64,000 bases of DNA from Alphaproteobacteria bacterium (lineage in GTDB: Bacteria; Pseudomonadota; Alphaproteobacteria; SP197). Position 1 is the first letter of the stretch. Each line of letters opens with the position of its first letter. The translations under genes were made by a program, and so were the position numbers. Of this stretch, positions 13,316 through 57,142 are shown in pieces. The stretch is taken from positions 1,982,235 through 2,046,234 of the forward strand of contig OZ251464.1 in the NCBI GenBank assembly GCA_965242595.1, given 5' to 3'. Under the pieces are notes generated by a model. It made no database searches and had not been told where the DNA came from. It saw only the letters and a list, made by a program, of their open reading frames with translations.

Positions 13316-13384
13316 CGGGAGCAGCGGGAATTGTCACCCCCCAATCGGCATGACGGCCTGCCGGGAGGGCGCCGGGCGGGGCGT

Positions 13385-14041: not shown

Positions 14042-14061
14042 CGGCTTCCTCCTCACCGGCA

Positions 14062-14208: not shown

Positions 14209-14415
14209 TTAGACGGTGGCCGGTTCGGGCAGCGCCCCATCCTCATTGCGGACGATCTCCAGCCACTCGTCCACGATCCGGCACAGCTCGCGATACACCG
14301 CCACTTCGTCGTCGCCATGACAGCACGGGCCGATGACCCCGGGACAGGAACCGACAAAACACCGGTCCTCGTCCGACCATGCGACTCGCTTGATGTATTT
14401 CGCGCTGTCCTTCAT
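14209..14415 (-). CDS. hicB: HicB-family antitoxin, short form without a DNA-binding domain (68 aa)
   Basis: Reads MKDSAKYIKRVAWSDEDRCFVGSCPGVIGPCCHGDDEVAVYRELCRIVDEWLEIVRNEDGALPEP, matching the HicB-like antitoxin pattern (Y..v.WseEDg.yva..P.lpGc...GdT.eEA.......I.ewLE). It has a 4-nt ATGA overlap with hicA and a GAGGAG SD inside the hicA 3' end. Confidence 0.75.
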   Translation of the reverse strand: MKDSAKYIKRVAWSDEDRCFVGSCPGVIGPCCHGDDEVAVYRELCRIVDEWLEIVRNEDGALPEPATV

Positions 14416-14606
14416 GTCTGCGACTCCTCTATCCTTCGCCGCACCTCTCGTTCCTGGTAGGGCTTGGCATCGCCACCCAGGCTTCCGGAAATCGTCACAC
14501 GCTGCCCGTTCGGGTGGCGATAATTTCTGTGGCTGCCCTTGCCGCCGCGCGAAACGAACCCCGCCCGCTCCAGGTCTCTCACCAACGCTGCGACTTTACG
14601 CGGCAT
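14412..14606 (-). CDS. hicA: HicA-family mRNA interferase toxin (64 aa)
   Basis: Reads MPRKVAALVRDLERAGFVSRGGKGSHRNYRHPNGQRVTISGSLGGDAKPYQEREVRRRI. It has the G-KGSH-x-y-HP signature of HicA/YcfA-like proteins and sits directly upstream of hicB with overlap. Confidence 0.8.
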   Translation of the reverse strand: MPRKVAALVRDLERAGFVSRGGKGSHRNYRHPNGQRVTISGSLGGDAKPYQEREVRRRIEESQT

Positions 14607-14762: not shown

Positions 14763-15044
14763 TTATCCCGAAGCTCGTTGAACTTCAGCCGCCCCGCCAT
14801 GCCGTGGCCCGCGCTGCCCAACCATCCCGGAGCACGCCAGGCCCGCGGTCGGTTCGGGCAGCGCCCCATCCTCATCGCGGAGGATCTCCAGCCACTCGTC
14901 CACGATCCGGCACAACTCCCGATACACCGCCACTTCGTCGTCGCCGTGACAGCACGGGCCGATGACGCCGGGGCAGGAACCGACGAAGCACCGATCCTCG
15001 TCCGACCACGCGACTCGCTTGATGTATTTCGCGCTGTCCTTCAT
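14763..15044 (-). CDS. Second, orphan HicB-like copy (hicB') with a 26-aa C-terminal extension and no hicA partner
   Basis: MKDSAKYIKRVAWSDEDRCFVGSCPGVIGPCCHGDDEVAVYRELCRIVDEWLEILRDEDGALPEPTAGL... is ~93% nt identical to hicB over ~250 bp. It has an intact ATG (15044) and a GAGGAG SD. The ORF track extends it to 15083 through the tandem repeat. Confidence 0.5.
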   Translation of the reverse strand: MKDSAKYIKRVAWSDEDRCFVGSCPGVIGPCCHGDDEVAVYRELCRIVDEWLEILRDEDGALPEPTAGLACSGMVGQRGPRHGGAAEVQRASG

Positions 15045-15057
15045 GTCCGCGACTCCT

Positions 15058-15130
15058 CTATCCTCCGCCGCGCCGCTCTCCATCCCTCGCCGCGCCGCTC
15101 TCTATCCTTCATCCTTCGCCGCGCCGCTCA
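15058..15130. repeat. Imperfect 22-bp tandem triplication replacing hicA upstream of hicB'
   Basis: Units are ctatcctccgccgcgccgctctc / catccctcgccgcgccgctctc / tatccttcatccttcgccgcgccgctcattcc. They correspond to the 3' end of hicA (RRRIEE codons and the hicB SD) present once at 14416..14440. Confidence 0.7.
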
Positions 15131-15286: not shown

Positions 15287-18200
15287 CTACCAGGCCAGGC
15301 GCAGTTCCAGGGCCAGGCCGTGTTCGGGATCGGCGACGCCCTCGTTGCGGCTGGCCTCGATGGCGAGGCTCAGCACGCTGCCCAGCCCCCACCGCTGGCC
15401 CAGGCTGTAGCGGCGCTCGCCCCGGCCCAGGGCCATGGCGCCATAGGGGGTCGCGGTGGCGACGCCGCCCCAGGCGGGCAGGCCATAGCCCAGCTCGCTC
15501 TCCAGCCGGGCGCCCCGGCCGACGCTGGCGCCGTTCTCGTCGCCGCCCGCCATGCCGTCCTGCCACAGGCGCGTCAGGCCGCTATCGGCCACGCCCCAGG
15601 CGGGGGCGAGCTGGAACGACAGGCCGCGCCCGTCGCCGTCGGGGTTCAGGTGGAAGGCGCCAGACGCGCCCCATTCCTCCAGATCGCTGCGATGGGCCAG
15701 CAGGGCCCGCCCGCCCAGTTCGGCCCCCAGGCCGCCGCCGGAATCGCTCAGCGCGATGCTGCCGCCCAGCTCCACGCCCATGCCGCTGGCGCCATCGCCA
15801 CCGTCCCAGCGCAGCCCCGCCTCCAGGGACGGCGCCAGCGACCAGCCGCCATCCAGCGACCAGCTGCGGCTTCCCGCCGCCGCCAGCCGGGCGCGCTGGG
15901 TGGCCACGGTCAGGGCGGCGATCACCTCGCCATTGTCGTCCAGGGCATAGCGGGTGGCCTCCACCGACGCCTTCAGGTCCAGCGCCAGCCCGTCGGCGGC
16001 CAGCAGCGGCAGCGCCCCGCCCATGGCGGCGGCCAGCATGGAACTGTCGCCCGCCTGCCAGCCATAGCGCTCGCGGATGGCGCTATCGGTCATGCGCAGA
16101 TCGCCGCGCCCATAGCCCAGGGCCGCCCACAACCGGCTGCCGTCGGCGCCGGCCCAGCCCAGATAGGGATGGACGGCCGACATGGCGCTCTCGTGGTCGC
16201 CCCGGATGGCGCCCTCGTCGCCATCGCTGCGGTCGCTATAGGCGATGGCGCTCTCGAAGCGCGAGAGCGCCAGCCCGGCGGTGAAGCCGTCGCCCAGCAC
16301 CGCATCGGCGCCGAGATGGGCCGCGAACAGCCTGCCCGACCAGTCCAGCGCCGCCTGCTTGCGTTCCAGATCGCGCCAGTCGCCGGCGCCCCACAGCACC
16401 AGCGAGGAGGCGCCGCCATCGTCGTCATCGCCGCCACTCAGGGCCAGGGTGAAGCCTTCGCCGCCCAGCAGCTCCTTCCACGAGCTGCCGCCGTCCTCCA
16501 GCGCCTCGCCCTTGGAGCGCAGGAAGCCCGCCGCCGCGTCCAGGCCCTGCGCCGCCAGCCCACCGCCGCCACCGGCCGGGCCTTCCAGGCGGGAGGAGAT
16601 GGCGTCCAGCGCGCTGCCCCACATGGCCCGCGACAGCTCCGGCAGAATGGAGCGGTTGATGGCCTTCAGCCGCGCCCGCGCCAGGTCCAGATTGGCCACC
16701 ACCTCGACGGTGAAGACCAGCTCCGCCCGCTGGCCGTCGATATCGGTCGCCGTCCAGCTGTAGCTGCGCAGCTCGAACGCCGCGCCCGGCGTCCCCGACA
16801 GGCGGCGCCCGGCGCGGGCGATGCCGTCCGGCAGCGTCTCCGGCGCCAACGCATATTGCAGCTGCCCGTCGCCGCCGCTCGCCAGCGGCAGGTCCAGCGG
16901 CGCGATGGCCTCGTCCACCGTCCAGGTCAGCGCCTGCGGGAAGTCGGCCTCGGCGAAGGACGGGCGCGTGTCCTCATAGCCGACCGCAAAGGGCGAGAAT
17001 GTCGTCACCCCGGGCGCGCACACCCGCATCCGCTCCGCCTCCCAGGACGACCCCGCCACCGGTTCCCAGGCGCTGCCGTCATGATGCAGCAGCACGGGTT
17101 CGCGCCCCGCCGCCGCCGCCAGCAGAGCCTCGCTTACCGGCAGGCAGATATGCAGCCCCGCCGCCAGCGCCCCCGCGACCTGGATATCCACCGCCGACTG
17201 CGCCGCGCCGTCCCGCCCCAGGGCGAAGCCCGACCCATCCACCACCGGCAGCGCCCGGTCCGAAAGCGGCCTGAAGCTCATCTCCACCATGCGTCCGCCG
17301 ATGCTGAACACCGCCTCCGCCTCCCGCAACGGCGCCAGGATGCGGCTGTCCTCTTCCACCGGAGCGGAGAGCGCCGCCTGCACCCCGTCATAATCGCCGC
17401 CGGAGGCGCTGTGGGTCAGCAGCGCCGCGTCGGCATAGTCGTCCTCGTCCCCCCGCGCCGTCACCGTCACCGTCTGCGCCTGGTTCCAGTCCGCCGCCGT
17501 GAAGGTCAGGCCGGTGGGCGCGGGCGTCACATCCGGGTTGTCGCTCGCCACCGCCAGCGTCACCGGCCCGGTGGGCTCGCTGGTCAGCGCCACCGTGTAG
17601 TCGGCCCCCGGCCCGTCCGCCGTGGTCGCCACCGCCGCCGGCGCGAAGGCCAGCCCCCTGCTGTCGTCGTCGGCGACGGTCAGGGTGGCGGCGGCGACGG
17701 CCACGCTTTCGCCGGCGGCGCTGGCCAGGGCGTTGGCGGCCGCGCCCGTCACCCGCACCGATATGTCCGGCGCATCCACGGCGTTGTCGTTGGCCGTCAC
17801 CGTCACCTGGCCGCTGCTGGCGGTAGCAAAGGCGGCAAAGGTCAGCGTCGTTCCCGCCTGGGTGAAATCGCCCGCCACCGCGCCCGCCACCGGCGCCGCC
17901 TGAACCGTCACCGTGGTCGCCGCCGCCGAGGGATGGGACAGCAGCGCCGTCACCCGCGTCACGCCGCCGTTCTCGGAGATGGTGGCCGGGTTCAGCACCA
18001 GCGTCACCGCCGGCGCCGCGTCGTCGTCGCTCGTGGTCACATCCACATGCTCGACCAGGCCGTCATAGATGGCATCGCCGCTCGCCGTCCGCAGCCGCAC
18101 CTGCCATGCGACATCGCCATCGTCGATGGCGTCGTCCACCCCGGTCACCGTCACCCTCTGGGCCCGGTTCCAGTTCCCGGCGCCGAACACCAGCGCGGCC

Positions 18201-21200
18201 GGCGCCACCCGCCCCTCGCCGGGATCGCGGCTGGTCACCGCCACCGTCACCGCCGCGCCCGGCTGGGTCAGCAGCGCCAGGGTAAAGCTGGCCTGGCCGC
18301 CCGCCTCGCTCGCCCGCCCGGTCACCCGGCCCACATCCAGCCCGGCCTCGTCGTCGCGGATGGTCAGCGCCGCGTCGGCCGGGGCCGCCACCCCGCGCCC
18401 GCCCGTGACGGTCGCCGAGACCGTCACCGTCATGCGGCCCGAAACCGCGCTGTCGTCCACCGCCGTCACCGTCACCGCCCCGGTGCTGGCGGTCGCGCCC
18501 GCCGCCACCGTCAGCCTGTTCGCGGCCGAAAGCGTGAAATCGTCCGCCTGGGCGTTCGCCCCCGGCGCCGCCGCCACCGTCAGCGTGGTCGCCGCGCTGG
18601 ACGGGTGGGAGAGCGCCGCCGTCACCGTCGCCACGCCGCCGTTCTCCCAGATCCACGTCGGCGTCAGCACCAGCCGCGCCGTCGGCGTGGCCTCGTCGTC
18701 GGCGATGGTCAGCGTCACGGCGCCGGGATCGGTCTTGCCGTGGCCGTTGGCGGCGCTGCCGGAGACCGTCACCCGTTTGTCCGGCGCGTCGCTGGCGTTG
18801 TCCGCCGCCGCAATCGTCACCCGCCCCGCGCTGACGGTCGCGCCCGCCGCCACGGTCAGCGTCGCCGCCGCGCTCAGGCTGTAATCGCCCGCCACCGCGC
18901 CGCTGGCCGCCACCGGGGCCACCGCCACCGTCACCGTGGTGGCCTGGCTGGAAGGCCGGTCCAGCGCCGCCGTCACCGTCGCTACGCCGCCGTTCTCGGA
19001 AATCGAGGCCGACGACAGGCGCAGCGTCGTCGCCGGCGCCGGATCGTCGTCGGTCAGCGTCAGTATGGCGCCGCCGATGCTGCCCACGCCCTGGTCGTTG
19101 GCCGCCGTCGCCGTCACCATGGGGGTGCGGTCGGGTTCGTCGGTGGCGTTATCGACCGCCGTGACGCTCGCCGTGTCGCCGGTGTTCTCGGTGCTGCCGG
19201 CGGCGATGACGACGGTCGCATCCGCGCCCACCGCATAGGCCCCGGCCAGCGCCTGAACCGTCACCGTGGTGGCCGCGCTGGAGGGATGGGAGAGCGTCGC
19301 CGAGACCGCCGAGGCGCCGCCGTTCTCGGAGATGGTGGCCGGGTTCAGCGCCAGCGTCACCCCCGGCGCCGCCTCGTCGTCGGCGATGGTCAGCGTCACC
19401 GAGGGCGGGTGGTTGACAAGGCCCAGGCTGTCGCTGGCGGTGCCGGAGACCGTCACGCTCTTGTCGGGCGCGTCGGTGCCGTTGTTCGCGGCCGTGATCG
19501 TCACCGCGCCGCTGCTGGTGGTGGCGTTGGCCGCGAAGGTCAGGGTGGTTCCCGTCTGCGTGAAGTCCGTCCCCGAACCGGGCGATGCCGAGATCGTCAC
19601 CGTCACCGCCACGCTGGACACCTTGTCCAGCACCGCCGTCACCGTCGCCACCCCCCCGTTCTCCCCAATCGACGATGACGACAGCGCCAGCGTCGTCTGC
19701 GGCGTATCGTCGTCGGTCAGCGTCAGCGTGGCGTCGGACGGGTTCGCCACCCCGTTGCCGCCGGTGGCCGTGGCCGAGACCGTCACCCGCTTGCTGCCCG
19801 TGGCCACGGCGTTGTCGTTGGCCCGGATCGTCACCCGCCCGGCGCTGGCGGTGGCCCCGGCGGCGATGGTCAGCGTGGTCCCCGTCTGCGCGAAGTCCGC
19901 CGCCGCCGCCCCGCTCCCCGGCGCCGACGCCACCGTCAGCGTCACCGCCTGGGTGGAGGTGCCATCCAGTGTCGCCGTCACCGTCGCCACGCCGCCGGCC
20001 TCCGCAATCGAGGCGGGAGAAAGCGCCAGCGTCGCCACCGGCAGCGCCTCGTCCTCTTCCAGCGTCAGCGTCACCGGCGTCACGCTGCCCGCGCCCTGGT
20101 CGTTGTCCACCGTCGCCGTCACGCTGGCGGTGCGGTTGCCGGAATGGACGCCGTTGTTCACCGCCGTAATCGTCACCGTGTCGCTGGCGGCCGTGGTGTC
20201 CCCGGCGGCGATCACGATCTGCCCCGCCGCCCCCGCCGGCACCGTGAAGGCGCCGGAGACCGCCTGAACCGTCACCGTGGTGGCCGCGCTGGAGGGGTGC
20301 GAGAGCGTCGCCGAGACCGCCGAGCTGGCGCCGTTCTCCCCAATCGCGGCATCCGACAACGCCAGCGTCACCCCCGGCGCCGCATCGTCGTCGCTCAGCG
20401 TCAGCGTCTGCGACGACGGATCGTTGGTAAGCCCCAGGCTGTCGCTGGCCGTGCCGGAAACCGTCACGCTCTTGTCGGGCGCGTCGGTGTCGTTGTTCAC
20501 GCCCGTGACGGTCACCACGCCGGCGCTGGTGGTGGCGTTGGCCGCAAAGGTCAGGGTTCTGGCGGTGGAGAGGGCGAAATCGCCCGCCACCGCGCCCGCG
20601 CCCGGCGAAGCCGAGATCGTCACCGTCACCGCCACGGCCGAGATGCGGTCCAGTGTCGCCGTCACCGTCGCCACCCCGCCGTTCTCCCCAATCGACGACG
20701 ACGACAACGCCAGCGTCGTCTGCGGCGTATCGTCGTCGGTCAGCGTCAGCGTCTGCGACGACGGGTTCGCCACCCCGTTGCCGCCGGCAGCCGTCGCCGA
20801 AACCGTCACCTGCTTGCTGCCCGTGGCCACCGCGTTGTCGTTGGCCCGGATCGTCACCCGCCCGCTGCTGGCCGTGGCCTCGGCGGCGATGGTCAGCATG
20901 GTTCCCGCCTGCGCGAAGTCCGCCGCCGCCGCCCCACTCCCCGGCGCCGAGGCCACCGTCAGCGTCACCGCCTGGCTCGACTTGCCATTCAGGGTCGCCG
21001 TCACCGTCGCCACCCCCCCGGCCTCCGCAATCGACGCGGGAGAAAGCCCCAGCGTCGCCACCGGCAGCGTCTCGTCGTCTTCCAGCGTCAGCATCGCGCC
21101 GGTCACGCTGCCCGCGCCCCGGTCGTTGGTCAGCATCCCCGTCACCGTCGCCGTCCGGTTGGGTTCGTCGATGTCGTTATCCACCGCCGTGATCGCCGCC

Positions 21201-24200
21201 GTGTCGCTGGCGGCGGCGGTGGCCCCGGCCGCAATCACGATGGTGGCGTCCGAACCCACCGTGTAGAAGCCGGCCACGTGGGTCACCTTCACCGTGGTCG
21301 CCACCGCCGAGGCCCGCGACAGGGTGGCGCTCACCGCCGACGTGCCGCCGTTCTCCGAAATCGAGGCGGGAGAAAGCGCCAGCACCGCCCCCGGCGCCGC
21401 GTCGTCGTCGTTCAGCCTCAGCGTCGCCGTGGTGACGGCCATGGTGGTGGAATCGGCGCTGGCCCGGTCGTTCGTCACGATGGCCGTCACCGTCTCCTGG
21501 CGACCGGGGCTGCCCTGGTGAACATTGTCGTTCACCGCCGTAATCGTCACCGTCCCGCTGGCGTTCACCGTGTTTCCAGCCGCGATCACGATCTGCCCCG
21601 CCGCCCCCGACGGCACCGTGAACGCCCCCGAAACCCCCGTCACCGTCACCGTGGTGTCCGCGCTGGAGGGATGGGAAAGCGTCGCCGAGACCACCGAGGT
21701 GCCGCCATCCTCGGCAATCGAGGCTGCCGACAGCGCCAGCGTCACCCCCGGCGCCCCGTCGTTATCGGTGGTGGTCACCGCCACATCCACATCCGCCAGC
21801 GCGTTGTAGTTGGTATCGCCGCTGGCCGGGTCCAGGCGCACATTCCAGGTGACGGTGCCGTCGTCGATATCGTCGTCCTCCCCGGTCACCGTCACGACCT
21901 GGGTCGTGCTCCAGTCGCCCGGCTGGAACGTCAGGGTGTCGGGCGATACCGCCCCCTCGCTGGCATCCTGGCTGCTCACCGTCACCGTCACCGCCTGCGC
22001 GGGCTGGGCCAGCAGCGCCACGGTGAAGCTCGCCTGCCCGCCCCCCTCGCTCGCCTGGCCGCTCACCGTGCCCGTCACCAGGCCGTATTCGTTGTCTTGG
22101 TTGACGGCATAGACGGTCGCCGCCGCCAACCCGTCATAAACGCTGTCGGCCGTGTTCGCCTGGTCCACCGTCACCGTCACCTGGTAGTCCTGGTTGCCGT
22201 CGGCGGCGGAATCGTCCTGGCCGGTCAGGGTCACGGTCTGGGCCGTCTGCCAGTCGCTGGCCGTGAAGGTCAGCGACCCGGGCGAGACCGCGCCTTCGCT
22301 CGCGTCGGTGCTGGTCAGGGTCAGGTCCAGCTCCACGGCCCCGGTGGGTTCGCTGGTCAGCGCCACGGTGAAACTCGCCGTCCCGCCCGCCTCCGTGGTC
22401 CGCAGCCGCGATGCGGCCGAGGTGGTGGGCGAGAAGGCGAAGCCGGCCACATCGTCGTCCCGGTTCACGGCATAGACGTTGATCTGGGCCAGGCTGCTAT
22501 AGCGGCTGTCGGCGGTGTCGGCCGGATCTACTGTCGCCGTCACCCGGTAGTCGCGGTCGCCATCGTCGATAGCGTCGTCCTGGCCGGTCAGGATCACGGT
22601 CTGGGCCGTCTGCCAGTTCTGGGCCGTGAAGGTCTGGCTGCTCTGGGCGCCGTCGGTGGCCGGATCGGCGTCCACCGCGCCTTCGCCGGGCGTGACCGAG
22701 GCAAAATCGACCGACACATTCGAGGTCGGCTCGCTCGCCAGCTTCACCGTGAAGCTGGCGGTTCCACCGGCCTCCGTGGTCGCCAGCCGCGCCGTGGTCG
22801 AAGGCGTCGGCGCCAGCGTCAGCGCCGCCATATCGTCGTCGGTGACGGTCAGCGCCGCCCCGGTCACGACCATGACCTCCGACTCGGCGTCGGCCTGGGC
22901 GTTGGCGGCCGTTGCCGTCACCGTCGCCATGGCGTTGGCCGCGTCCACCTGGTTGTCCACCGCCACCACCCTCGCCCGGTCGCCGGCGGCCGCGGTGGCC
23001 CCGGCCGCGATCACGATGGTGGCGTCCGAACCCACCCGATAGGCCGCGCCCTGCGCCGCCGTCACCGTGATGGTGGTCGCCGCGCTGGACGGGTGCGAGA
23101 GCGTGGCGCTGACGCTGGCTATCCCGCCATTCTCCGCAATCGAGGACGGGGCCAGGGCCAGCGTCACCCCCGGCGCCCCATCGTCGTCGGCGATGGTCAG
23201 CGCCGCCCCGGTCACGCTGCCCGCCCCCTGGCTGTTGTCCATGGTGCCCGAAACCGTCACCGCCTTCGCCGGCGCGTCGCTGTCGTTGTCGCTGGCCGTC
23301 AGCGTCACCACGCCGGCGCTGGCCGTCCCGCCCGCCGCGATGGTCAGCGTCGCCGGGCTCGAAAGCGTGAAGTCGCTCCCCGCCCCCGGCGCGGCCGCCA
23401 CCGTCACCGTGGTCGCCGCGCTGGAGGGCCGGTCCAGGGTGGCCGTCACCGTCGCCACCCCGCCGTTCTCCCCAATCTCGCTTGCCGACAGCGCCAGCGT
23501 CGCCGTCGGCGCGGCGTCGTCGTCCACAATCGTCACCGTCACGTCGGCGGGCGCCGCCACCCCGTTGCCGCCCGCCACCGCGCCCGAGACCGTCACCGCC
23601 AAATCCGCCTCGTCGGTCGTGTCGGCGCGGGCGGTCAGCGTCACCACGCCGGTGCTGGCCGTCGCCTCGGCCGCGATGGTCAGCGTCGCCGAGCTCGAAA
23701 GCGTGAACTCCGTCCCCGCCCCGGGGGCGGCCGTCACCGTCACCGTCAGCGCGGCGCCGGGTTTGCCGTCGAGCCCAGCCGTCACCGTGGTCACATTCCC
23801 CGCCCCGCCCTCGGCGATGCTCGTGGCCGAAAGCGCCAGCGTCAGGGTGGGCGTCGCCTCGTCGTCGCTGGTGGTCACCGCTATGTTGCGATCCGCCAGG
23901 GCGTTGTAGTCGCCATCGCCGCTGGCCGTGTCCAGCAGCACATTCCACTCCACATCGCCGTCGTCGATATCGTCGTCCTCCCCGGTCACCGTCACCGCCT
24001 GGGCCGTGTTCCAGTCGCTCGTCTGGAAGATCAGGGTGGAGGGCGATACCCGGCCCTCGCTGGCATCCTGGCTGGAGACCGCCACCGTCACCGCCTGCGC
24101 AGGCTGGGACAGCAGCGCCACGGTGAAGCTGGCCTGTCCGCCCGCCTCGCTCGCCTGGCCGCTCACCGCGCTCACATCCAGCCCGAAATCGTCGTCGGCG

Positions 24201-27200
24201 TTGACGGCATAGACGGTCACGGCCGCAACCATGTCATAGACACTGTCGGCCGTGCTGGTCTGATTCACCGTCAGCGTCACTTCGTAGTCCTCGCTGCCAT
24301 CGACCATGCCGGCATCGTCCTGGCCGGTCAGCGTCACCGTCTGCGCCGTCTGCCAGTCCGACGCGGTGAAGGTCAGCGACGACGGCGACACCGTGCCCTG
24401 GGCCGTGTCCGAACTGGCCACATCCAGCACCACATCCCCGGTCGGCTCGGTCGCCAGGGTGACGGCCACCGTGGCCATGCTGCCATCCTCCGAGGTGCGC
24501 AGCCGCGAGCTTGTGCCGGTCGTGGGCGACATCACGATTCCCGCTATGTCATCGTCGGTGAACTCCATCGACTGGCTCAGCTGCGTCTGCGACAGGCCCT
24601 GGTCGTTCACCAGCTGGGCCCTCATCGACTCGGTCCGGGTCGCCTCGTCCACCTGGTTGTCCACCGCCGTAATCGTCACCGTGTCGGCGGCATTCGCCGT
24701 CTGCCCGGCGGCGATCACGATCTGCCCCGCCGCCCCGGCCGGCACCGTGAAGGCGCCGGCCACCGCCTGCACCGTCAGCGTAGTCGCCGCGCTGGAGGGG
24801 TGGGAGAGCGTCAATGTCACCGTCGCCGTGCCGCCATTCTCGGAGATCGTGGACGGCATCACCGTCATCACCGGCAACGGCGCCGCATCGTCGTCCTCCA
24901 GCGTCAGCGTCACGCCGCCGATGCTGCCCACGCCCTGGCCGTTGGCCGCCATCGCCGTCACCGTCGCCATGCGGTCGGGCTGGTCGGTGTCGTTATCCAC
25001 CGCCGTAATCGTCACCGTGTCGCTGGCCGCCGTGGTGGCGCCGGCCGCAATCACGATGTAGCCCGCCGCCCCGGCCGGCACCGTGAAGGCGCCGGAGACC
25101 GCCGTCACCGTCACCGTGGTGGCCGCGCTGGAGGGATGGGAGAGCGTCGCCGAAACCACCGAGCTGGCGCCGTTCTCCACAATCGAGTCATCCGACAGCG
25201 CCAGCGTCACCCCCGGCGCCGCATCGTCGTCGCTGATCGTCAGCTCCGCATCGCCGGGCGCCACCGCCCCCTGAGAGTTGTCCACACTCGCCGACACCGT
25301 CACCCGCTTGTCCGGCGCGTCGGTGTCGTTGCTGACCGCCGTGATCGTCACCAGCCCGGCGCTGGCGGTGGCATTGGCGGCGATGGTCAGCGTTTTGGCC
25401 GCAGACAGCGTGAAGTCCGCCGCCAGCGCCGGCGAGACCGGCACCGCCGCCACCGTCACCGTGGTCGCCACGATGGAGGCCCGGTCCAGGGCCGCCGTCA
25501 CCGTGGTCACGCCGCCGTTCTCGGCGATGGACGCCGCCGACAGCAGCAGCCGCGCCCTGGGGTCGTCGTCGTCGTTCACCGTCGCCGTCACATCCTCGCT
25601 CAGCCCGTTATAGGCGGCGACGCTGCTGGACGAGGTCAGCGTGACGGTCACCTGCGCGCCGTCGGCCTCGTCGGCGCTGTCGTCCACCGCCCTCACCTTC
25701 AGCTGGCGCGCATGGCTCCAGTTGTCCCCCGTGAACACCAGCGTCTTCGTGGCCGTGGCGGCCCCCGCGCCCACCGCCAGCCGCGCCTGGGTGGCATCGC
25801 CGCTGGTCGCCGTCACCGTCACCGCCGCCGCCGGCCTGCTCGCCAGCCGCACCGTAAAGGCCGCGCCGGCCCCGCCCTCGGTCACCGTCACCGCGTCGCT
25901 CGAAAGCGTCAGGGCGGCCATATCCGCATTGGTGGTGCGCACCGTCTGCGGGCGCACGCTGGCCCCGCCTATCGTGTGATAGGCGTCTGTGGGCGTGTCC
26001 GGCGTGTCCGGGAACAGGCGCAGGGTGTAGTCGCCGTCGCCGTCCACCACATTGTCGCTCACGCCGTGCAGGGTCACGGTCTGCGCCGTCTCCCAGTCGC
26101 TGGCGGTGAAGGTCAGCCGCGTCGATGCCGCCGCCGCGCCGCCGCCCGCAGACACCAGCCCCTGGGCCGTATCGCTGCTTTTCACCGCCACCGCGATGTC
26201 GGTGGTGGGCTGGCTGTTCAGCTTCACGGTGAAGGTCTCGCTGGCCCCTTCGGCCACGCTCAGCCACACCGGACACGGCGCCCGGCGGCAGCGCGGAAAG
26301 GCCGGGGCCGTCACCAGGGCGGCCCGGTCGTCCTCCCAGATCAGCAGCTCCGCCACCACGGTCGGGTTGCCCTGGGAATCGGTCGCCGCCGCCACCTGAC
26401 TCGCCGTCCCGGTCACGCTGGCCGAAAGCGTCACCTTCTTGCCGGCGACCGTGCTGTCCACGATGGAGTCGATGTCGTCGTCCACGGCCGTAATCGTCAC
26501 CACGCCGGTGCTGGCGGTGGCCCCGGCCGCGATGGTCAGCTTGGTGTTGGCGGAAAGGGTGAAATCGTCCGCCGCCCCATTGGTTCCCGGCGCCGCCCGG
26601 ACCGTCACCGTCACCGCCGCCCCCGATGCGGCGCTCAGGCTGGCGGTCACCGTGGCCATGCGCTCGCCCGAGGGCGCCGTCGCCAGCTCCTTGATGGTGT
26701 TCGCCTGGCCGGAGATCGGGTCCGACAGCGCCAGCGACAGGGTGGGCGCGGGGTCATCGTCGACGATGGTGAGCGTGGCGGTGGCCCGGTTCGGCGCCAG
26801 GGTCGCGCGCCCGCTCAGGTTGTGCAGGGTGACGACGAACGTCTCGTCGTGCTCGTCCTCCTCATCCCCTTCCCACGCGACCGAGAAGCATTGACGCTGG
26901 GTGGTGGGCGCACCATCGCCCAGGGTGTCGGTGAAGGGTCCGACACCCTGAGATACGATGGCCGTGTAGTCGGTCCCCGCCGTCGCCGTGCCGTCGCTGG
27001 TCGAGACCTGCGCATCGACGCGGCCATAGCCGGTCGGCTGGCTTATCACCGCGCAGGCACTGGCGGGCTGCTGGGAGGACGCATCGCCCTCGGTCTCGCG
27101 CAGCGCCGTGTCCTGGAAGCCCAGCGTCGGCGGGTCGTCGTCGTCAGTGATGGTGCCGGTTCCGGTCGCGGTCGCCAGACTCGCGTTCACGGCGCCGGAG

Positions 27201-45200: not shown

Positions 45201-48200
45201 GCCGGCGCCACCGGGGCCGCCGTCACCGTCACCGTCATCGCCGTGCTCGGCGGCAAGGGCAGCCGCGCCGTCACCGTCGCCGCCCCGGCCTGGCCGCCAT
45301 CCTCTTCGATGCGCGCCGACGACAGATGCAGCGTCACCCGCGCGCCATCGTCGTCGAGATTGGCCGCCCGCACCTCGCTGCTCGCCAGGGCGCGATAGCC
45401 GGCGTCGCCGGGCGGCGTGGCCGTGGCCGCCGCGCTGTCCGCATCCAGCGTGATGGCATAGCTCACATCGCCGTCCACCGGATTGGCAGGCGCGTCGTTC
45501 TGGCCGTGAACCGTCACCGTCTGCGCCGTGCTCCAGCTGGTGGCGTCGAATGTCAGCGTCGCCATTGCCGCCGCGCTCGCGCCGCTGGCGACCGAAATCA
45601 GCCCCTCGCCCGTATTGCCGCTGCTCACCGTCACCGTCACCGCCGCCGTCGGCGCGCTGGCAAGCGCCACCGTGAAGCTGTCCGTGGTTCCCGTCTCGCT
45701 GGTCTGGGTCGAACCCTGGCTCTCCACCACCGTCAGCCCCGCCGCGTCGTCATCGACATTGGTCACGCTCACCGTGACGTTCCCCAGGCCGCGATAGGCG
45801 CCGTCGCCCGCGCTGTCCGGGTTGAGCGTGACGGCATAGCTGGCGTCGCCATCGTCCGCGTCGTCGTCCACGCCCCGCACCCGCACCTCCTGGCCCACAT
45901 TCCAGTCGGACGCGCTGAAGCTCAGCGTCCCCGAACTGCCCCAGTTGCCGCCGCTATCCACCGACAGCTGGCCCTCGCCCGCCGACCCGGACGGGATCGA
46001 CGCCGCCACCGTCACCGCCGCCACCGGCTGGCTGGAAAGCGCCACCGTGAAGCTGTCCGTGCCTCCCGCCTCGCCGGTCCGGGTCGCCCCCTGGCTCTCC
46101 ACCACCGTCAGCCCCGCCCGGTCGTCGTCGTCGCGGATGAAATTGCTCGCAGTCGAGTCCCTCACATTGGCGTTGACCTGGTTGGTGAGCCTCAGGCACA
46201 CCGACTCGTAGAGGTTCTCGTCGATGTCGTCGTCCAGCACCGTCACGTGGAAGCTGAGGGAATTGCTGCCCGGCGGGATGGTCACCACCCGCCCGGTGAG
46301 GGAGGTGTAGTCCAGCCCCGCGGTTGCGGGGGGACGCGGCCCAGGCGCCCTGCAGGTTCCCAGATTGAACGTGATCGGCAGCTCGCTCCTGCCATCCAGT
46401 TGCAAAACGAAATTCACCTGCCCCGCCTGTCTGTAGGTGAAACTGCTGCCGGGCCTCTGCGCCGCGCCGCTGCGCCCTTCCCAGCCGGCATCGTCCGAAC
46501 TGAAGAGGGTGACCGTCGGCGTTCTGTCGTCGTCGGTCAGCGTCAGCGCCACGTCGGCCGCATCCGCCACCCCGTTGCCGCCCGTCGCCGTGCCCGAGAC
46601 CGTCACCTGCTTGCTGGGCGAATCCAACCCGTTGTTGTTCGCCCTCACCGTCACCGCCCCGGTGCTGGCCGTGCTGCCGGCCGCGATGGTCAGCGTTTTG
46701 GCCATGCTCAGCGTGAAGTCCCGCGCCGCCGCATAGCTTCCCGGCGCCGCCGCCACCGTCACCGTCACCGCCTCGCTGGAGGCGGCCGAAAGCGCCGCCG
46801 TCACCGACGTTACACCGCCCGACTCCGAAATCGACGACGGCGCCAGCGCCAGCGTCAGCGTCGGCAACACATCGTCGTCGCTCAGCGTCAGCGTCGCGTC
46901 CGCCGGCGGCGCCACCCCGTTGCCGCCCACCGCCGTGGCCGAGACCGTCACCTGCTTGTCGGGCGAGTCCACATCGTTGCCGTTCGCCGTCACCGTCACC
47001 GCCCCGGCGCTGGTGGTGCTGCCGGCGGCGATGGTCAGCGTCCTGGCCGCGCTGAGGTCGAAATCCGCCCCCACCGCCCCGGTTCCCGCCGCCGCCACCA
47101 CCGTCACCGTCACCGCCTCGCCCGAGGGATGGGACAGCATGGCCGTCACCGTCGCCACCCCGCCGGTCTCCGAAATCGACGCCGGCTCCAGCGCCAGCGT
47201 CAGCGTCGGCAGCGCGTCGTCGTCGTTCAGCGTCAGCGCCGCCCCGGTGACAGCGCCCACCCCCGGCCCGCTCGCCGCCCGGCCCGTCACCGTGACGGAA
47301 CGGCCGCCGCTGCCCTCATGGGCGTCGTTGTCCACCGCCGCCACCGTCGCCACATCGTCGCCGCCGGCGGTCTGCCCGCCCGCGATGACGATGCTGGCAT
47401 CCGCCCCCGCCGTGTAGCCCCCCTCCACCGGCGTCACCGTCACCGTCACCGCCGCCACCGAGGGATGGGACAGCATGGCCGATACCGTCGCCACCCCGCC
47501 CGCCTCCGCAATCGAGGCCGGGTTCACCGCCAGCGTCACCGAGGGCGGGGCGTCGTCGTCGGCCAGCGTCAGCGCCGCCCCGTTGACGGCGTTGCCGCCC
47601 AGGGCGCTCGCCGCCCTGCCGGTCACCGTCACGCTCCGCCCCGCCGCCCCTTCGTAAGCGTCGTTGTCCGCCGCCACCACCGTGGCGATGTCGGCGCTGG
47701 CGGTCTGCCCGGCCGCGATGGCGATGCTGGCGTCCGCCCCCTGGCCATAGGCGCCGGCCACCGCCTCCACCGTCACCGTCACCGCCTGGCTGGACGGCCC
47801 CGACAGCACCGCCGTCACCGTCGCCACCCCGCCCGCTTCCGTCACCGATGCCGGCCGCGCCGCCAGTGTCACCGACGGCGTCTCTTCGTCGTCCGTAATG
47901 GTCAGCACCGCCCCGGTCACGCCCCCCGCGCCCTGGGCATTGGTCATGCTGCCCGTCACCGCCACCTGCCGGTCCGCCTCGTCGATGGCGTCGTCCAGCG
48001 CCGTCACCAGCGCGGTATCGCCCGCATTCTCGGTTCGCCCCGCCTGGATGACGATATGGCGGGTGGAGTCGTCCACCTCATAGGCGCCCGACAGCGACGC
48101 CACCGTCACCGTCGTCACCGCGCTGGACGGATGCGACAGCGCCGCCGATACCGTCGCCACCCCGCCCGCCTCCGAAATCGTGGCCGGCGCCGCCGTCAGC

Positions 48201-51200
48201 GTCACCCCCGGCGCCGCGTCGTCGTCGTTCAGCGTCAGCGCCACCGCCGCCGGCGCCGCCACCCCGCCACCCGCCGCCAGGCCGGAGATCGTCACCGTCC
48301 CGTTGGGCGCGTCCGTGGCGTTCCCCACCGCCGTCACCGTCACCGCCCCGCTGCTGGCGCTCTGCCCGGCCGCCACCGTCAGCGTCCGCGCCGCCGACAG
48401 GGTGAAGTCCAGCGCCGACGCCCACGCCCCCGGCTGTGCCTGAACCGTCACCGTCACCGCCGCGCTCGCCCCCGCCGACAGGGTGGCCGTCACCGTCGCC
48501 ACCCCGCCCGCTTCCGCGATCGCCGCCGGCTCCAGCACCAGCGCCAGCGTCGGCGGCCCGTCGTCGTCCAGCAGCGTCAGCACCGCATCCGCCGGCGCCG
48601 CTATCCCGCCGCCGGCGCTGCTGCCGGAGATCGTCACCCGCTTGTCCGCCGTGTCGTCGCCATTCCCCACCGCCGTCACCGTCACCACGCCGCTGCTGGC
48701 CGTCGCCCCGGCCGCGATGGTCAGCTTGGTTCCCGTCAGCGTGAAATCGCCCACCGCCGCCCCGGCCCCGGGCGCCGCCGCCACCGTCACCGTCACCGCC
48801 TGGCTGGCCGGATAGGAGAGCGTCGCCGTCACCGTCGCCACCCCGCCCGTCTCCGAGATCGACGACGACGACAGCACCAGCGCGGCCGTCGGGCGGGCAT
48901 CGTCGTCCTCCAGCGTCAGCGCCACCGGGCTGGGCGCCGCCGCCCCGTTGCCGCCGGCAACCGTGCCCTGGACCCGCACCCGCTTGTCCGGCGTCACCGC
49001 CGCATTGCCCACCGCCGTCACCGTCACCACGCCGCTGCTGGCGGTCTGCCCGGCCGCGATGGTCAGCGTCCGCGCCGCCGACAGCGCGAAGTCCCGCGCC
49101 GCCGCCCCGGCCCCCGGCAGCGCCTGCACCGTCACCGTGGTGTCCTGGCTGGACTCGCCCGAAAGCGTCGCCGTCACCGTCGCCACCCCGCCGCTCTCCG
49201 AAATCGACGCCGGCGCCACCGCCAGCGCCACCGCCGGCGTCGCCTCGTCGTCCACCAGGAACAGGAACAGATCCTCGAGGCGATGCGCCGGCACGCCCTG
49301 CCCCAACGACACCCGGCCCTCGATGCGCACCTCCCTGTTGGGCGCATCCACATCGTTGTCCAGCCCCGTGATCTCCACCGCCTCCGTGCTGGCCGTCTGC
49401 CCCGCCACGATGTTCAGCCCGGTGCCCGTGCCGCCCCGCACCGCCTCGGCCCGGTAGCCCGCCACATTGGCGTTCGGCTGGATCGTGACCAGAACCCGCA
49501 CATCCGCCGTCGTCGCCGCGCTCAGCGCCACCGTCAGCGTCGCCACGCCGCCGTTCTCCGAGATCGACGACGACGACAGCGCCAGCGAGGCCCGCGGCGC
49601 CCCGTCGTCGTCGCGAATCGCCAGCATGGCGTCGCCCGGATCCGCCACCCCCAGCCCGCCCGACGCCGCGCCGGAGATCGCCACCCGCTTGTCCGGCGCA
49701 TCCACGCCGTTGTCGCTGGCCGTCACCGTCACCGCGCCCGAACTGGCGGTCGCCCCCGCCGCGATGGTCAGCGTGTTGGCCGCGCTCAGCGCAAAGTCCG
49801 TCCCCGCGCCCGGCGCGGCCGATATCGTGATGGTCACCGGCGCGCTGGAGGGATGCGACAGCACCGCCGTCACCGTCGCCACCCCGCCCGCCTCCGAAAT
49901 CGACGCCGGCGTCACGACCAGCGTCGCCGCTGGCGTGGTGTCGTCGTCGGCGATCGCCAGCCTGGCCGGCGCCACCGCCGCCACGCCCTGGCGGTTGGCC
50001 GCCGAACCCGACACCTCCACCCGCTTGTCGGGCGAATCCACCGGGTTGGCCACCGCCGTCACCGTCACCCGCCCCGTGCTCTCCCGCCGCCCCGCCGCGA
50101 TGGTCAGCGTGGTTCCCGCTTGCGTGAAATCCGCCGCCGCCGCATGGGCCGCCGCCGCCGCCGAGACCGTGACGGTGGTCGCCGAACTGGACGGATGGCT
50201 CAGCACCGCCGTCACCGTCGCCACCCCGCCCGCCTCCGCAATCGTGGCCGGAGTCACGGCCAGCGCCGGCACCGGCGGGTCGTCCTCGTCGCGCAGCGTC
50301 AGCACCGCCGCCGGCGGCGCCCGCACATCGTCGCTGGCCGCCGCCCGCGCCGTCATGCGCCGGTCCGGCGTATCGACCGCGTTGTCCACCCCCGTGATCG
50401 TCACCGTCCCGGCGCTCGCCGTCGCCCCCTGCGCGAATGTCAGCACCGGCGCCGCCGACAGCGCCGCATCGCCCGCCCGCGCCGGCGCCTGCGGCGTCAG
50501 CGACAGCGTCAGCGTCGCCGCCGAAACCGCCGCCTTGTCCAGCACCGCCGTCACCGTCGCCACCCCGCCATTCTCCCAGATCGCCGCCGGCGTCAGCGCC
50601 AGCGTCGCCTTGGGCAGGGCGACGATGGGAACCCACTCGCCGTAGAAGAAATTGGTCTGGTTGCCGCCGCTCCCACCGCGGAGCGTATCCACGACGAAGA
50701 CGACCACGCCATCGTTGTCGATCATCGCCTGGGTAAGACGGATGGTCCTGGACCAGCCGCCGCCGCTGGCCTGGCGGCAAACGGCGCCCTCGGTCGGCGC
50801 GGGGTGGGTGCTTCCAGAGCCTCGACTAACCGTCCTGTACGCGCACGCCCAGATCTGTCGCCGCGACGCGTCCTCCGCAGGCGGCGCGCTAACGGCGATG
50901 GTTTGCGGGGCGCTCTTGCCCAGCAGCGACGCCGTGGTGACGTTAAAATTGTGCGCCTGCCCCCAGCGCCTGTCGTTCCCTGTCGGCGTCCCACCCTCGT
51001 TGTCGGCGATCTCCACGCTCACGCTCGCCGGGTTCGCCACCCCATGGCCCCCCGCCGCCGCGCCGGTCACCGTCACCCGCTTGTTCGCCGCCGCCACATC
51101 GTTGTTCACCGCCGTCACCGTCACCGACCCCGTGCTGGCGGTGCCCTCCGCCGCGATGGTCAGCGCCCGGTTCGCGCTCAGCTGGTAGTCGGTCACCGCC

Positions 51201-54200
51201 GCCCCCGTCCCCGGCATCGCCGCCACCGTCACCGTCACCGCCGCGCTGGACTTGCCCGACAGCGCCGCCGTCACCGTCGCCACCTCGCCGCCCTCCGAGA
51301 TCGAGGCCGGCGCCACCGTCAGCGTCACCGACGGCGTCCGCTCGTCGTCCACCACGGTCAGCACCGCCGCCACCGGGTTCGCCACCCCGCGCCCGCCCGT
51401 GGCGCCCCCCGTCAGCCGCACCCGCTTGTCCGGCGCATCGACATCGTTGTCCCTGGCCGTCACCGTCACCACGCCGCTGCTGGTCGTCTGCCCGGCCGCG
51501 ATGGTCAGCTTCGTGGTCGCGCTGAGGTCGAAATCCGCCGCCACCGCCGGGGCCACCGCCGCCGCCGCCACCGTGATCGTCACCGCCGCGCTGGAAGGAT
51601 GCGACAGCCCCGCCGTCACCATCGCCACATTGTCACTACCGCTTTCCTCTATAGACGCGTGCGAAAGTAACAACCGCGCCGTCGGGGTGGCGTCGTCGTC
51701 GGTCAGGGTCAGCGTCACGGCGGAAGGCGCCGCCACCCCATGGCCCCCCACCGCCGGGCCGGAGACCGTCACCTGCTTGTCGGGCGAGTCCACAGCGTTG
51801 TCGTTGGCCGTGATCGTCACCGCCCCGGTGCTGGTCGTGGCGCCCGCCGCGATGGTGAGCGTCTTGGCGGCGGAAAGGCCGAAATCGGCCGCCACCGCGC
51901 CGGTCCCGGGCGCCGCCGCCACCGTCACCGTCACCGGCGCGCTCGCCCGGCCCGAAAGCGTCGCCGTCACCGTCGCCACCCCGCCGCCTTCCGAGATCGA
52001 GGGCGCGGACAGCGTCAGCTCCAGGGTCGGCGCCATCTCGTCGTCGCTGAGCGTCAGCGCCACCCCCGTCACCGGGCCGGTGCCCTGGTCGTTGGCCATG
52101 CTGGCCGTCACCGTGGTCTGGCGCCCGCCGCTGCCCTCATAGACGTCGTTGTTGGCCGCCGTCACCAGCACCGTGTCGCCCGCATTCGCTGTCTGGCTGG
52201 CCGCGATGACGATGGTGGCGTCGGCTCCCACCGTGTAGAAGCCGGAAACCGCCGCCACCGTCACCGTGGTCGCCGCGCTCGAGGCGTGGTCCAGCGTCGC
52301 CGTCACCGTCGCCTCGCCGCCGTTCTCGGAGATCGACGCCGGCGCCACCGCCAGCGTCACCTCCGGCGCCGCGTCGTCGTCCGCGACGGTCAGCGTCAGC
52401 GCGGGCGGCGATACCACCCCGCGCCCGCCCGTGGCCACCCCGGACACCGTCGCCTGTTTGTCCGGCGCATCCGCCCCGTTATCGACCGCCGTGATCTCCA
52501 CCGCCCCCACGCTCGCCGTCGCCCCCGCGGCGATGGTCAGTGTCCGGTTCGCGCTCCAGCTGAAATCCCCCGCCACCGCCGGCGGCACCGCCGTCAGCGA
52601 AACCGCAATCTCCACCGCCTCCCCCGACGGATGCGTCAACTTCGCCGTCACCGTCGCCACATTAGAGGCCCCGCTTTCGTCGATGGTGGCGGACGAAAGC
52701 ATCAGCGTCGCCGTCGGCAGCGCATCGTCGTCGCGCACCGTCAGCGTCGCATCCGCCGGGTTCGCCACCCCGTTGCCGCCCACCGCCTGGCCGGAGACCG
52801 CCACCCGCTTGTCGGCCGCATCGGTCGTATCCGGCAGCGCCGTCAGCGTCACCGCGCCCGAACTGGCCGTGTCGCCGGCCGCAATCGTCAGCAGCGTCCC
52901 GGTCTGGGTGAAATCCGCCCCCGCCCCCGGCGTCGCCGCCACCGTGATCGTCACCGCCTGGCTGGAGGCGCCCGAAAGCGTCGCCGTCACCGTCGCCACC
53001 CCGCCCGCCTCGGCGATGGCGGAAGGTTGCAGCGCCAGCCGCGCCGTGGGCGTGGCCTCGTCGTCGGCCAGCGTCAGCGTCGCATCCGCCGGGTCCGCCA
53101 CCCCGTTGCCACCGGTCGCCGTGGCGGAGACCGTCACCGCCTTGTCCGGCGCATCCACCGCGTTGTCATTGGCCGTCAGCGTGACCGTCCCGCTGCTGGC
53201 GGTGTCGCCCGCCGCGATGGTCAGCATCGTTCCCGTCAGCGTGTAATCGCCCACCACCGCGCCCGTTCCCGGCGCCGCCGCCACCGTCACCGTCACCGCC
53301 TCGCTGGACGGGCCCGACAGGGCCGCCGTCACCGTCGCCTGGCCGCCCACCTCCGAAACCGACGACGACGACAGCACCAGCGACAGCGTCGGCGTGCCGT
53401 CGTCGTCGCGGATGGTGAGCGTCGCGTCCGGCGGATCCGCCGCCCCGGGGCTGCCCGCAGCGGTCGCCGAAATCGTCACCCCCTTGTCGGCCGAGTCGGT
53501 GGGGTTCCCCACCGCCGTCACCGTCACCGGCCCCGAACTGGTCGTGGCGCCGGCCGCAATCGTCAGCGTGGCGGGCGCGCTCAGGGTCCAATCGCCCACC
53601 GCCGCGCCCGCACCCGGTGCCGCCGTCACCGTCAGCGTCACCGCCGCCGCCGAGGGGTTGGAAAGCGTCGCCGTCACCGACGCCACCCCGCCAGTCTCCG
53701 AGATCGAGGCCGGGGTGAGCGCCAGGGCCGAGCTGGGGCGCGCATCGTCGTCGGCGATGGTCAGCGTCACGTCGGCGGGCGCCGCCACCAGCCCGTGCCC
53801 GCCCGCCACCTGCCCGCTCACCGTGGCGGTTTTCGCCGTCGAGTCGATGGCATCGTCCACCGCCGTCACCGTCACCGCGCCGACGCTGGCCGTCGCACCC
53901 ACCGCGATAGTCAGCGTCCGCGCCGCCGACAGGGCAAAACCGCCGTCGGCGGCCAGCGCCGCATAGACCGGCGTCGCCGCCACCGTCACCGTGATCGCCT
54001 CGCCCGAAACGCCGCCGGCAAGGCTGGCCGTCACCGTGGTCGCGTTGCCCGCCCCGCTTTCGGCGATGCTGTGCGGCCGCCCCGCATCCGGGGCCGAAAG
54101 CGCCAGCGTCAGCACCGGCGTCGGATCGTCGTCCTCGATGGTGCCGGTTCCGATGGCCGCGCTTCCCAGCCTGGCGCCGGAGGGGTTGGAAAGCTCCAGG

Positions 54201-56080: not shown

Positions 56081-56099
56081 ATCCAGGCCTGAACCGCCA

Positions 56100-56146
56100 C
56101 TGATCGAACCGTAATCTATAACAACCCATCGCGCCAACGCCTGCAA
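56100..56146 (-). promoter_or_regulatory. Candidate promoter of giant gene 1 in a low-GC stretch
   Basis: Minus strand reads TTGCAG-17nt-TGTTATAGAT upstream of the ATG at 56080. The track's TTG start coincides with the -35-like TTGCAG. Confidence 0.25.
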
Positions 56147-56455
56147 TCGTTTTCCGACATGGTGCAGTCACCGCCCACCTAATCCATTTTCCTCCCTACC
56201 ACCTTCCCCTACCTTGGCGCCCCCCACTCATCGCCACCCATGCTCCGGCCATGGCGGCAAGCGGCCCGGAAGGCCGAAGAGGCGCCCGGCCTTCGCCGCA
56301 GCCGCCCGCGCAAAGCCTCTTGGCAGCCGCACAGCTATCGAAGGCGGCAACGGCCACAGCGGCGCTCCCCGAGCCGGCCACCGGCACGATAAGCGACGGC
56401 AACAACCGCCGCAAGGGGACGATACCGCCCCCGCATGATGTGATCGACCTGCCGG

Positions 56456-57066: not shown

Positions 57067-57142
57067 TGGTGAGCCCGCAGGGACTCGAACCCTGGACCCT
57101 CTGATTAAAAGTCAGATGCTCTACCAGCTGAGCTACAGGCTC
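57067..57142 (-). tRNA. tRNA-Lys (anticodon UUU), 76 nt with encoded CCA
   Basis: Minus-strand sequence is GAGCCTGTAGCTCAGCTGGTAGAGCATCTGACTTTTAATCAGAGGGTCCAGGGTTCGAGTCCCTGCGGGCTCACCA. The 7-bp acceptor stem is GAGCCTG/CGGGCTC and the anticodon loop is CTTTTAA. The T-loop is TTCGAGT. Confidence 0.9.

Follow-up and report, generated by a model that had tools for sequence, protein, structure and literature searches.

Can a single bacterial reading frame of 13,619 codons be one functional gene, and if so, how does its product leave the cell and what does it do there? The question is raised by the minus strand at positions 15287..56146 of a 64-kb stretch of alphaproteobacterial DNA (assembly GCA_965242595.1, contig OZ251464.1, positions 1,982,235 to 2,046,234; the whole of this stretch is hereafter the window). 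Our analysis suggests that the frame probably codes for a giant surface fibre that is anchored to the cell and resembles a type V (classical autotransporter-like) protein in how it is built and exported. This reading is supported by a real gene, a census of 100 repeat domains, acidic triplets together with a pI of 4.06, matches of C-terminal homologues to the Pfam Autotransporter family (PF03797), and a terminal Trp. It is further supported by an anchor at the extreme C-terminus, signal peptides in relatives and in a second giant paralogue, paired cysteines, a cadherin-like tip, and the lack of repeats-in-toxin (RTX) motifs in the protein and of type I secretion system (T1SS) genes in the window.

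The only stop codon of the frame is the terminal one. At the ~72% GC content of the window long open frames are cheaper than usual, though not on this scale: about 238 stops are expected from the base composition of the open reading frame (ORF), the probability of finding none is ~1e-103, the longest open run across 100 shuffles was 622 codons, and the other five frames contain from 8 to 882 stops each. The GC content at the three codon positions (GC1/GC2/GC3 ~0.67/0.60/0.92) is constant in all 3-kb bins, and thus the frame is coding from end to end, which bears out the single uninterrupted ORF of an earlier note on this DNA. The ORFs of up to 3,450 aa on the opposite plus strand are antisense shadows, one plus-strand frame having the GC3 of the giant gene because the third codon position is common to both.

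The highly repetitive sequence and the metagenomic derivation of the genome would fit a quite different explanation, in which the frame is an assembly artefact with collapsed, expanded or chimeric repeats, or else a decaying pseudogene, and not a functional single gene; a 91%-identical relative, which a low-coverage contig shows as two gene calls, points the same way. However, the DNA repeats inside the gene mostly share just 66-80% identity and no exact repeat exceeds 54 bp, so that collapse or expansion during assembly is unlikely. The divergence of the repeats and the stop statistics lead us to reject this explanation as highly improbable, and the uniform coding signature, the ordered domains and the intactness of both termini, the first signal-peptide-like and the second an anchor, also speak against it, as does the recurrence of the same architecture at 41 independent loci in chromosome-level metagenome-assembled genomes (MAGs).

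The first in-frame ATG is codon 23 (window 56080) and is the likely start of the gene, although the true start codon is uncertain because no good Shine-Dalgarno sequence precedes it. The product from this ATG has 13,597 aa and a mass of 1.325 MDa. Upstream of the TTG at which the open frame begins (window 56146..56200, coding strand), a strong Shine-Dalgarno-like GGGAGG is followed by a two-codon mini-ORF (ATG GAT TAG), ~40 nt upstream of the earliest possible start in the frame. Simple scans for promoter and terminator motifs around the ends of the gene yielded nothing useful. The protein is large yet far from the size record, and its placement in the earlier note among the largest bacterial proteins was overstated: proteins of more than 10,000 aa are known in several bacterial phyla, with more than 30,000 aa in Omnitrophota (bioRxiv 10.1101/2023.11.21.568195), and UniProtKB holds more than 41,000 proteins longer than 5,000 aa (PMC11573180).

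Most of the chain is made of one domain superfamily. Scanning of the protein against Pfam in 14 chunks of 1,000 aa detected Calx-beta (PF03160) in 11 of them, with E-values down to 1e-34 and scores of 61-119 bits, well within the family given its gathering cutoff of 27. The same scan returned many LapA-type domain (PF20579) matches, five He_PIG matches (two towards the N-terminus, the other three at aa ~4,300-4,700), and a single fn3 domain (aa ~4749-4822, window 41681-41902), and thereby confirmed all three kinds of domain, Calx-beta, FN3 and dystroglycan-type (He_PIG) Ig-like, that the earlier note had recognised. The repeats were then counted with a hidden Markov model (HMM) derived de novo from the giant protein itself. 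Three different seeds converged on the same set of exactly 100 Calx-beta-superfamily domains, 107-142 aa each, across aa 558-12,936, where about 100 beta-sandwich repeats of at least three classes, arranged in blocks, had been estimated. They comprise class A (70 copies of a degenerate 'TLALSPASISEAGGVATVTA...' type), class B (17 copies, mostly paired) and class C (13 copies, namely 12 canonical Calx-beta domains and one outlier), and the order string of the 100 domains displays clear class blocks. According to hhalign the three classes are homologous over their full length (probabilities: A-C 98.3%, A-B 96.5%, B-C 95.9%). The copies were compared with each other by tiled BLAST, as whole-protein self-BLAST gave the identity match only; the most alike (81-87% aa identity) lie at aa ~11600-12200 in the second of the two arrays.

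An acidic triplet is found at the end of 95 of the 100 repeat domains, and, judged from sequence, these domain junctions are plausible as putative Ca2+ sites. The parts of the protein outside the repeats are aa 1-557, 1,720-1,844, 4,290-4,827 and 12,937-13,619. The second of these is a 125-aa insert with a Cys pair that breaks the first array, and the third is a central module supported by Pfam matches to He_PIG and fn3 (E 1e-7) and by PDB sequence matches to SraP and fibronectin. The mature chain has just 14 cysteines, all in close pairs 5-55 aa apart, a pattern that is tolerated by autotransport.

The case for export by a type V route depends mainly on the C-terminus. A search with the last 683 aa yielded 47 homologues (32-62% identical); 12 of 46 C-terminus homologues match PF03797, with a best E-value of 1.3e-10, and in 13 of the 46 He_PIG lies directly upstream. 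An AlphaFold 2 (AF2) model with the homologue alignment as input is confident (predicted local distance difference test, pLDDT, 79.8; predicted template modelling score, pTM, 0.69) and shows first an Ig-like domain, then a helix of 36 residues, a spacer of low confidence and lastly a large antiparallel beta region. The Ig-like domain (model residues 13-101, pLDDT ~90-96) stands at the same spot as He_PIG in the homologues, and the linker contains a motif, ARARLKAINxSxLPELSRAxWGSA, that is highly conserved in the anchor family. Upstream of the Ig-like domain lies a family-conserved pre-anchor domain of unassigned fold, without a Pfam or NCBIfam match. When the model was compared with known structures by Foldseek, only outer-membrane barrels were retrieved; the best E-values were those of the 26-stranded LptD, and the target-normalised score favoured autotransporter beta-domains (BrkA, TMt 0.66). 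In the predicted structure the succession of linker helix and outer-membrane barrel is that of the type Va translocator fold, the helix being a candidate for the pore-spanning helix of an autotransporter, and the terminal Trp agrees with the aromatic residue expected of a C-terminal beta-signal. Structure prediction and homologues together support assignment of the anchor as an autotransporter-type outer-membrane barrel.

Several observations weigh against this reading. Pfam and NCBIfam return nothing for the last 500 aa even at E<=10, and thus the C-terminal autotransporter barrel claimed in the earlier note holds through the predicted fold and the homologues, and not through PF03797 on the protein itself. 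In the model the helix is followed by ~60 residues of low confidence before the first strand begins. A classical type Va barrel has 12 strands and ~250-280 aa, whereas the region in question spans ~370 aa with ~18 strands as assigned by DSSP. Where PF03797 is matched by homologues, it covers profile positions 5 to ~215 of 255, that is, the first ~10 strands, and leaves ~150-160 C-terminal residues unmatched, ~115 more than a classical barrel would. Passengers of classical autotransporters are usually beta-helices, and to our knowledge the export of 13,000 aa by the classical autotransporter route has no precedent. Characterised classical passengers range from 280 to 3,333 aa (PMC9289746), and Ig-like arrays are typical of inverse autotransporters (PMC6555100). 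Finally, the sponge-symbiont origin of the bacterium, considered below, is itself something that we infer.

The unusual size of the beta region would be explained if the C-terminus were an autotransporter-related but distinct, enlarged translocator, either a barrel of 16-18 strands or a core of 12 strands plus a ~115-aa beta insertion peculiar to the family, which implies an undescribed type V subclass adapted to very long Ig-like arrays. The ~18 strands, the end of the PF03797 match after the first ~10 of them and the LptD E-values are consistent with this, as are the end-to-end conservation of a 470-aa unit in the best 150 of 6,457 relatives and the presence at 41 of 80 loci of passengers longer than 3,900 aa full of Calx-beta-superfamily domains. 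The strand count, however, comes from DSSP applied to a predicted model, AF2 confidence is low at model residues 440-500, and covariation is uninformative: in mean-field direct coupling analysis of 251 anchor sequences, with an effective number of sequences (Neff) of 129, sure hairpins reached z ~0.5 and the C-terminal signals were regional artefacts. A profile of the anchor family compared with PDB sequences had no autotransporter match, only SraP modules, from the Ig-like part. We hold an enlarged translocator to be somewhat unlikely, and retain it as a tentative alternative to a classical autotransporter-like barrel.

Giant repetitive adhesins are also secreted by T1SS, and the protein resembles the RTX adhesins of this kind (LapA, MpIBP, SiiE, BapA) in its megadalton size class, its tandem Ig-like repeats, presumably stiffened by Ca2+ at acidic linkers fit for such binding, its many LapA-domain matches and its presumed long adhesive stalk. 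A LapA/MpIBP/SiiE-like protein would be exported C-terminus first by a TolC-type system and retained by an N-terminal plug. In contrast, RTX nonapeptide motifs (GGxGxDxUx) number zero in the 13,619 aa, the C-terminus is a predicted outer-membrane barrel that ends in Trp and not an RTX/T1SS signal, and the N-terminus looks like that of a Sec substrate, with clear signal peptides in relatives. Genes for an ABC transporter, a membrane fusion protein or TolC are absent from the 64-kb window, as are genes for two-partner secretion or an usher. The RTX/T1SS reading is thus largely refuted, and we consider it very improbable.

At the other end of the protein, the N-terminus on inspection has a basic n-region followed by a hydrophobic core of 24 residues, and closes with an AxA-type end (AAA/H). 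The signal peptide proposed earlier is in this sense present as a signal-peptide-like N-terminus, and clear Sec-type signal peptides occur at the N-termini of complete relatives. The segment that follows would form the distal tip of the fibre. It includes two of three copies of an unassigned beta-sandwich domain, which we call X (aa 94-229, 331-469 and ~4330-4470), each followed by He_PIG. The X domain has the motif (L/K)(Y/T)F.Y.V..GD.D.DGI(S/T) and no sequence match in Pfam, NCBIfam or PDB. The cadherin-like/He_PIG modules of the tip match the ligand-binding region of the SraP adhesin.

The same export and anchoring could serve a role other than adhesion: the fibre would be a surface coat or spacer that binds Ca2+ and either protects the cell, for instance against host phagocytosis or phage, or structures the envelope. 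The extreme acidity and ~100 putative Ca2+-binding domains would suit such a coat, and the many paralogues per genome would suit a coat or antigenic variation; moreover, the tip contains no recognisable lectin or enzymatic domain. A secreted ankyrin-repeat protein is encoded nearby, and ankyrin proteins of sponge symbionts have been linked to phagocytosis evasion. Nevertheless, the match of the cadherin-like/He_PIG tip to the SraP ligand-binding region, and the classically adhesive nature of the domain families concerned, argue for adhesion, and a role as a coat appears distinctly doubtful to us.

For an adhesive, type V-like fibre the following mechanism can be proposed. The N-terminal signal peptide would direct the chain through Sec, and the C-terminal ~470 aa, with their predicted linker helix and beta-barrel, would be inserted in the outer membrane by BAM, the beta-barrel assembly machinery, as is known for the type V family (PMC6555100). 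The passenger of ~13,000 aa would then be threaded outward by a hairpin mechanism, its C-terminal end first and its N-terminal end last. On the model of inverse autotransporters such as intimin, whose Ig-like passengers are thought to drive secretion by folding in sequence outside the cell (PMC6555100), successive folding of the 100 Calx-beta domains at the cell surface, probably Ca2+-dependent, would pull the passenger out. The product would be an acidic, Ca2+-stiffened rod anchored in the outer membrane, ~0.4-0.5 µm long if 4-5 nm per domain is assumed, which agrees with the fibre of hundreds of nm proposed in the earlier note. The cadherin-like/He_PIG modules at its far end would serve adhesion; the most plausible partners are the matrix or cells of a host, or bacteria living alongside in a host-associated (probably sponge) community.

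Judged by sequence, the giant protein is not a singular oddity but belongs to a large, undescribed family that occurs in multiple copies. When the 470-aa helix and barrel unit was searched exhaustively with HMMER, and matches were counted as cluster representatives, there were 6,457 relatives at E<=1e-3, 5,061 at E<=1e-10 and 1,454 at E<=1e-30. Among the best 150 of the 6,457, helix and barrel are matched end-to-end and always at the extreme C-terminus, in proteins of ~400 to 7,178 aa. In species-representative genomes, which are chromosome-level MAGs, 94 anchor loci were confirmed; they belong to uncultured members of the Alphaproteobacteria, Gammaproteobacteria, Binatia, Nitrospirales and Arenicellales, and the copy number in a genome reaches nine or more. 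For 80 of these loci gene extent was inspected with a 10-kb flank each, and at 41 the anchor ORF has not closed by the end of the flank (at least 3,900 aa), with 21-28 Calx-beta-superfamily domains filling it. A further-reaching proposition is that the ~470-aa anchor (helix, spacer and ~370-aa beta region) defines an undescribed type V subclass in which an enlarged or modified autotransporter barrel exports megadalton Calx-beta arrays in uncultured, probably sponge-associated bacteria with many paralogues, and that the 13.6-kaa protein is the longest type V protein recognised so far; as a whole we rate it unlikely.

The closest anchor (61% identical) belongs to the alphaproteobacterial MAG OZ241369.1, and the RmuC protein encoded beside the giant gene is 73% identical to the RmuC of the same MAG. 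Identity to the anchor of the giant protein is 41-52% for a set from Alpha- and Gammaproteobacteria, Binatia and Nitrospirales, and 47-61% for most other alphaproteobacterial MAGs. Anchors from other phyla are thus about as similar as alphaproteobacterial ones, which hints at horizontal spread within a shared habitat. The loci, for example those in OZ241357.1 at 530-600 kb and in OZ241369.1 at 875-918 kb, are both multi-copy and clustered, with a maximum of at least nine per 3.5-Mb genome, often in tandem; giant genes lie in tandem in OZ241369.1. The 91%-identical relative mentioned above matches the giant N-terminus and stands in another genomic setting, with Band_7 and cobW neighbours (locus L081, European Nucleotide Archive (ENA) ERZ26050812 ctg20176, 10001-12302). 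It is divided into gene calls of 318 and 435 aa on a low-coverage 12.7-kb contig, which illustrates the fragmentation of such genes in short or low-coverage assemblies.

Comparison with characterised systems brings out where the protein departs from a classical autotransporter adhesin, namely in its passenger, its length and its extended beta-domain poorly covered by PF03797. As in type Va proteins (AIDA-I, and the translocators of NalP, EspP and Hbp), the passenger is N-terminal to the barrel in the same chain, but it consists of 100 Calx-beta domains with cadherin-like and FN3 domains instead of a beta-helix, and its length is ~4x that of the longest passenger characterised (3,333 aa; PMC9289746). 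The barrel region exceeds that of type Va by ~115 aa, with partial PF03797 coverage in relatives and a score below the Pfam threshold for the query itself. With the inverse autotransporters (type Ve: intimin, invasin and their long Big-domain relatives) the protein shares a long string of Ig-like domains and a presumably adhesive tip (PMC6555100). The topology, however, is reversed, with the predicted barrel C-terminal and the tip N-terminal, which excludes membership in type Ve; neither a LysM nor a periplasmic domain is present, and the sequence revealed no resemblance to the intimin barrel.

The features of the giant gene and of its surroundings are listed in Table 1. Next to the left edge of the window lies the 5' part of a second giant paralogue (giant2), which has a clear signal peptide (...LLAALALAAAAPAWA/QS), 31 Calx-beta-superfamily domains and two inserts, each ~120 aa, of the kind found at aa 1720-1844 in the main protein. 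Its DNA reaches 83% identity with the main gene over 1.7 kb (879-2562 versus 20770-22459), and the two giant genes together take up at least 52 kb of the 2.82-Mb genome (~1.9%). Upstream of the main gene, a tRNA-Lys gene is followed by genes for RmuC, a pentapeptide-repeat protein and the secreted ankyrin-repeat protein. The GC content is 59-69% in the flanks and 72-75% in the giant genes; the step at tRNA-Lys could mark the boundary of a genomic island or could reflect the Ala/Gly/Thr/Val-rich composition of the giant proteins. The ankyrin-repeat neighbour has a signal peptide (MPKAKTIAALSCALWLVSPVAALAAWP), 19 'PLH' ankyrin motifs and at least three super-modules of ~300 aa, each starting with 'C.DWNTQSFFEAATAADVTRCLNAGADPNAR', and its DNA repeats are ~80% identical.

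Table 1. Features of the giant gene and neighbouring elements (window coordinates; aa, residues of the 13,619-codon frame)
Feature	Position in window	Strand	Basis or remark
Giant gene, first ATG to stop codon	15287..56080	-	open frame reaches TTG at 56146
Signal-peptide-like N-terminus, aa 23-71, MGCKIVKPAGGVGACRRLCAAALAGGAGALALVVALVMQLGAGVPEAAA/HV	55934..56080	-	sequence inspection
Distal fibre tip (predicted), aa 72-557: two unassigned beta-sandwich X domains, then He_PIG cadherin-like domain	54476..55933	-	
X domain copies	~55460-55867, ~54740-55156, ~42737-43159	-	
Repeat array 1, aa 558-4289: 31 Calx-beta-superfamily domains, classes A/B/C	43280..54475	-	Pfam, de novo HMM, hhalign
Central module outside the repeats, aa 4290-4827: third X-type domain, three He_PIG stretches (Pfam), one FN3	41666..43279	-	
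Repeat array 2, aa 4828-12936: 69 Calx-beta-superfamily domains	17339..41665	-	Pfam, de novo HMM
Pre-anchor domain, aa 12937-13061, family-conserved, Cys pair (13001, 13043)	16964..17338	-	consensus of two family alignments
Membrane-proximal Ig-like (He_PIG-type) domain, aa ~13062-13150	16697..16963	-	AF2 model, homologues
Long alpha-helical linker, aa ~13153-13188	16583..16690	-	AF2 helix at model residues 104-139
C-terminal outer-membrane beta-barrel region (predicted), aa ~13249-13619, end ...LELRLAW	15290..16402	-	AF2/DSSP, Foldseek, homologues
Second giant paralogue (giant2), truncated by left window edge to its 5' part (at least 3,810 aa)	1..11430 (start approximate)	-	
Two ~250-aa ORFs without family match	11809..12546 and 12539..13315	-	
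Aspartyl-protease-like gene	13385..14089	-	PF13650, E 1e-6
Direct repeat, 232 bp, 93% identical, just downstream of giant-gene stop	14218..14449 and 14847..15078		
Small HicB-like ORF, covered by the 232-bp repeat	14763..15083	-	no Pfam match
tRNA-Lys(TTT) gene, 0.9 kb upstream of giant ORF	57067..57142	-	
Secreted ankyrin-repeat protein, at least 960 aa, runs off right edge	61121..64000	+	

The source bacterium is probably host-associated and a sponge symbiont. This is suggested by the mix of taxa among the relatives, which is typical of sponge microbiomes, by one homology match that is named Candidatus Tectomicrobia, and by the domain repertoire, as ankyrin, Calx-beta, cadherin and fn3 domains are reported to be enriched in sponge symbionts (PMC11706023). 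The secreted ankyrin-repeat neighbour, taken with this literature, backs the host association. The giant protein accordingly resembles the 'eukaryotic-like proteins' of sponge symbionts in its Calx-beta/cadherin/fn3 repertoire (PMC11706023), its ankyrin-repeat neighbour and its relatives in sponge-typical MAG taxa. It differs in that the sponge-symbiont reports, as far as searched, give domain counts and describe no autotransporter-type anchor, giant single-gene architecture or multi-copy family.

Giant repetitive adhesins are already a familiar theme, and the protein would be noteworthy chiefly for type V secretion and for the surface biology of symbionts. If the proposed export route is right, the size ceiling of autotransport rises from ~3-4 thousand to more than 13 thousand residues, and Ig-like arrays can be exported by a C-terminal barrel too, not by inverse autotransporters alone; a passenger of this length also bears on how the outer membrane is crossed without ATP. 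The family, thousands strong, is largely missed at its anchor by current Pfam and NCBIfam models. For sponge symbionts, the combination of anchor, stalk and cadherin-like tip would provide a concrete architecture in which their 'eukaryotic-like' Calx-beta, cadherin and fn3 domains may be placed.

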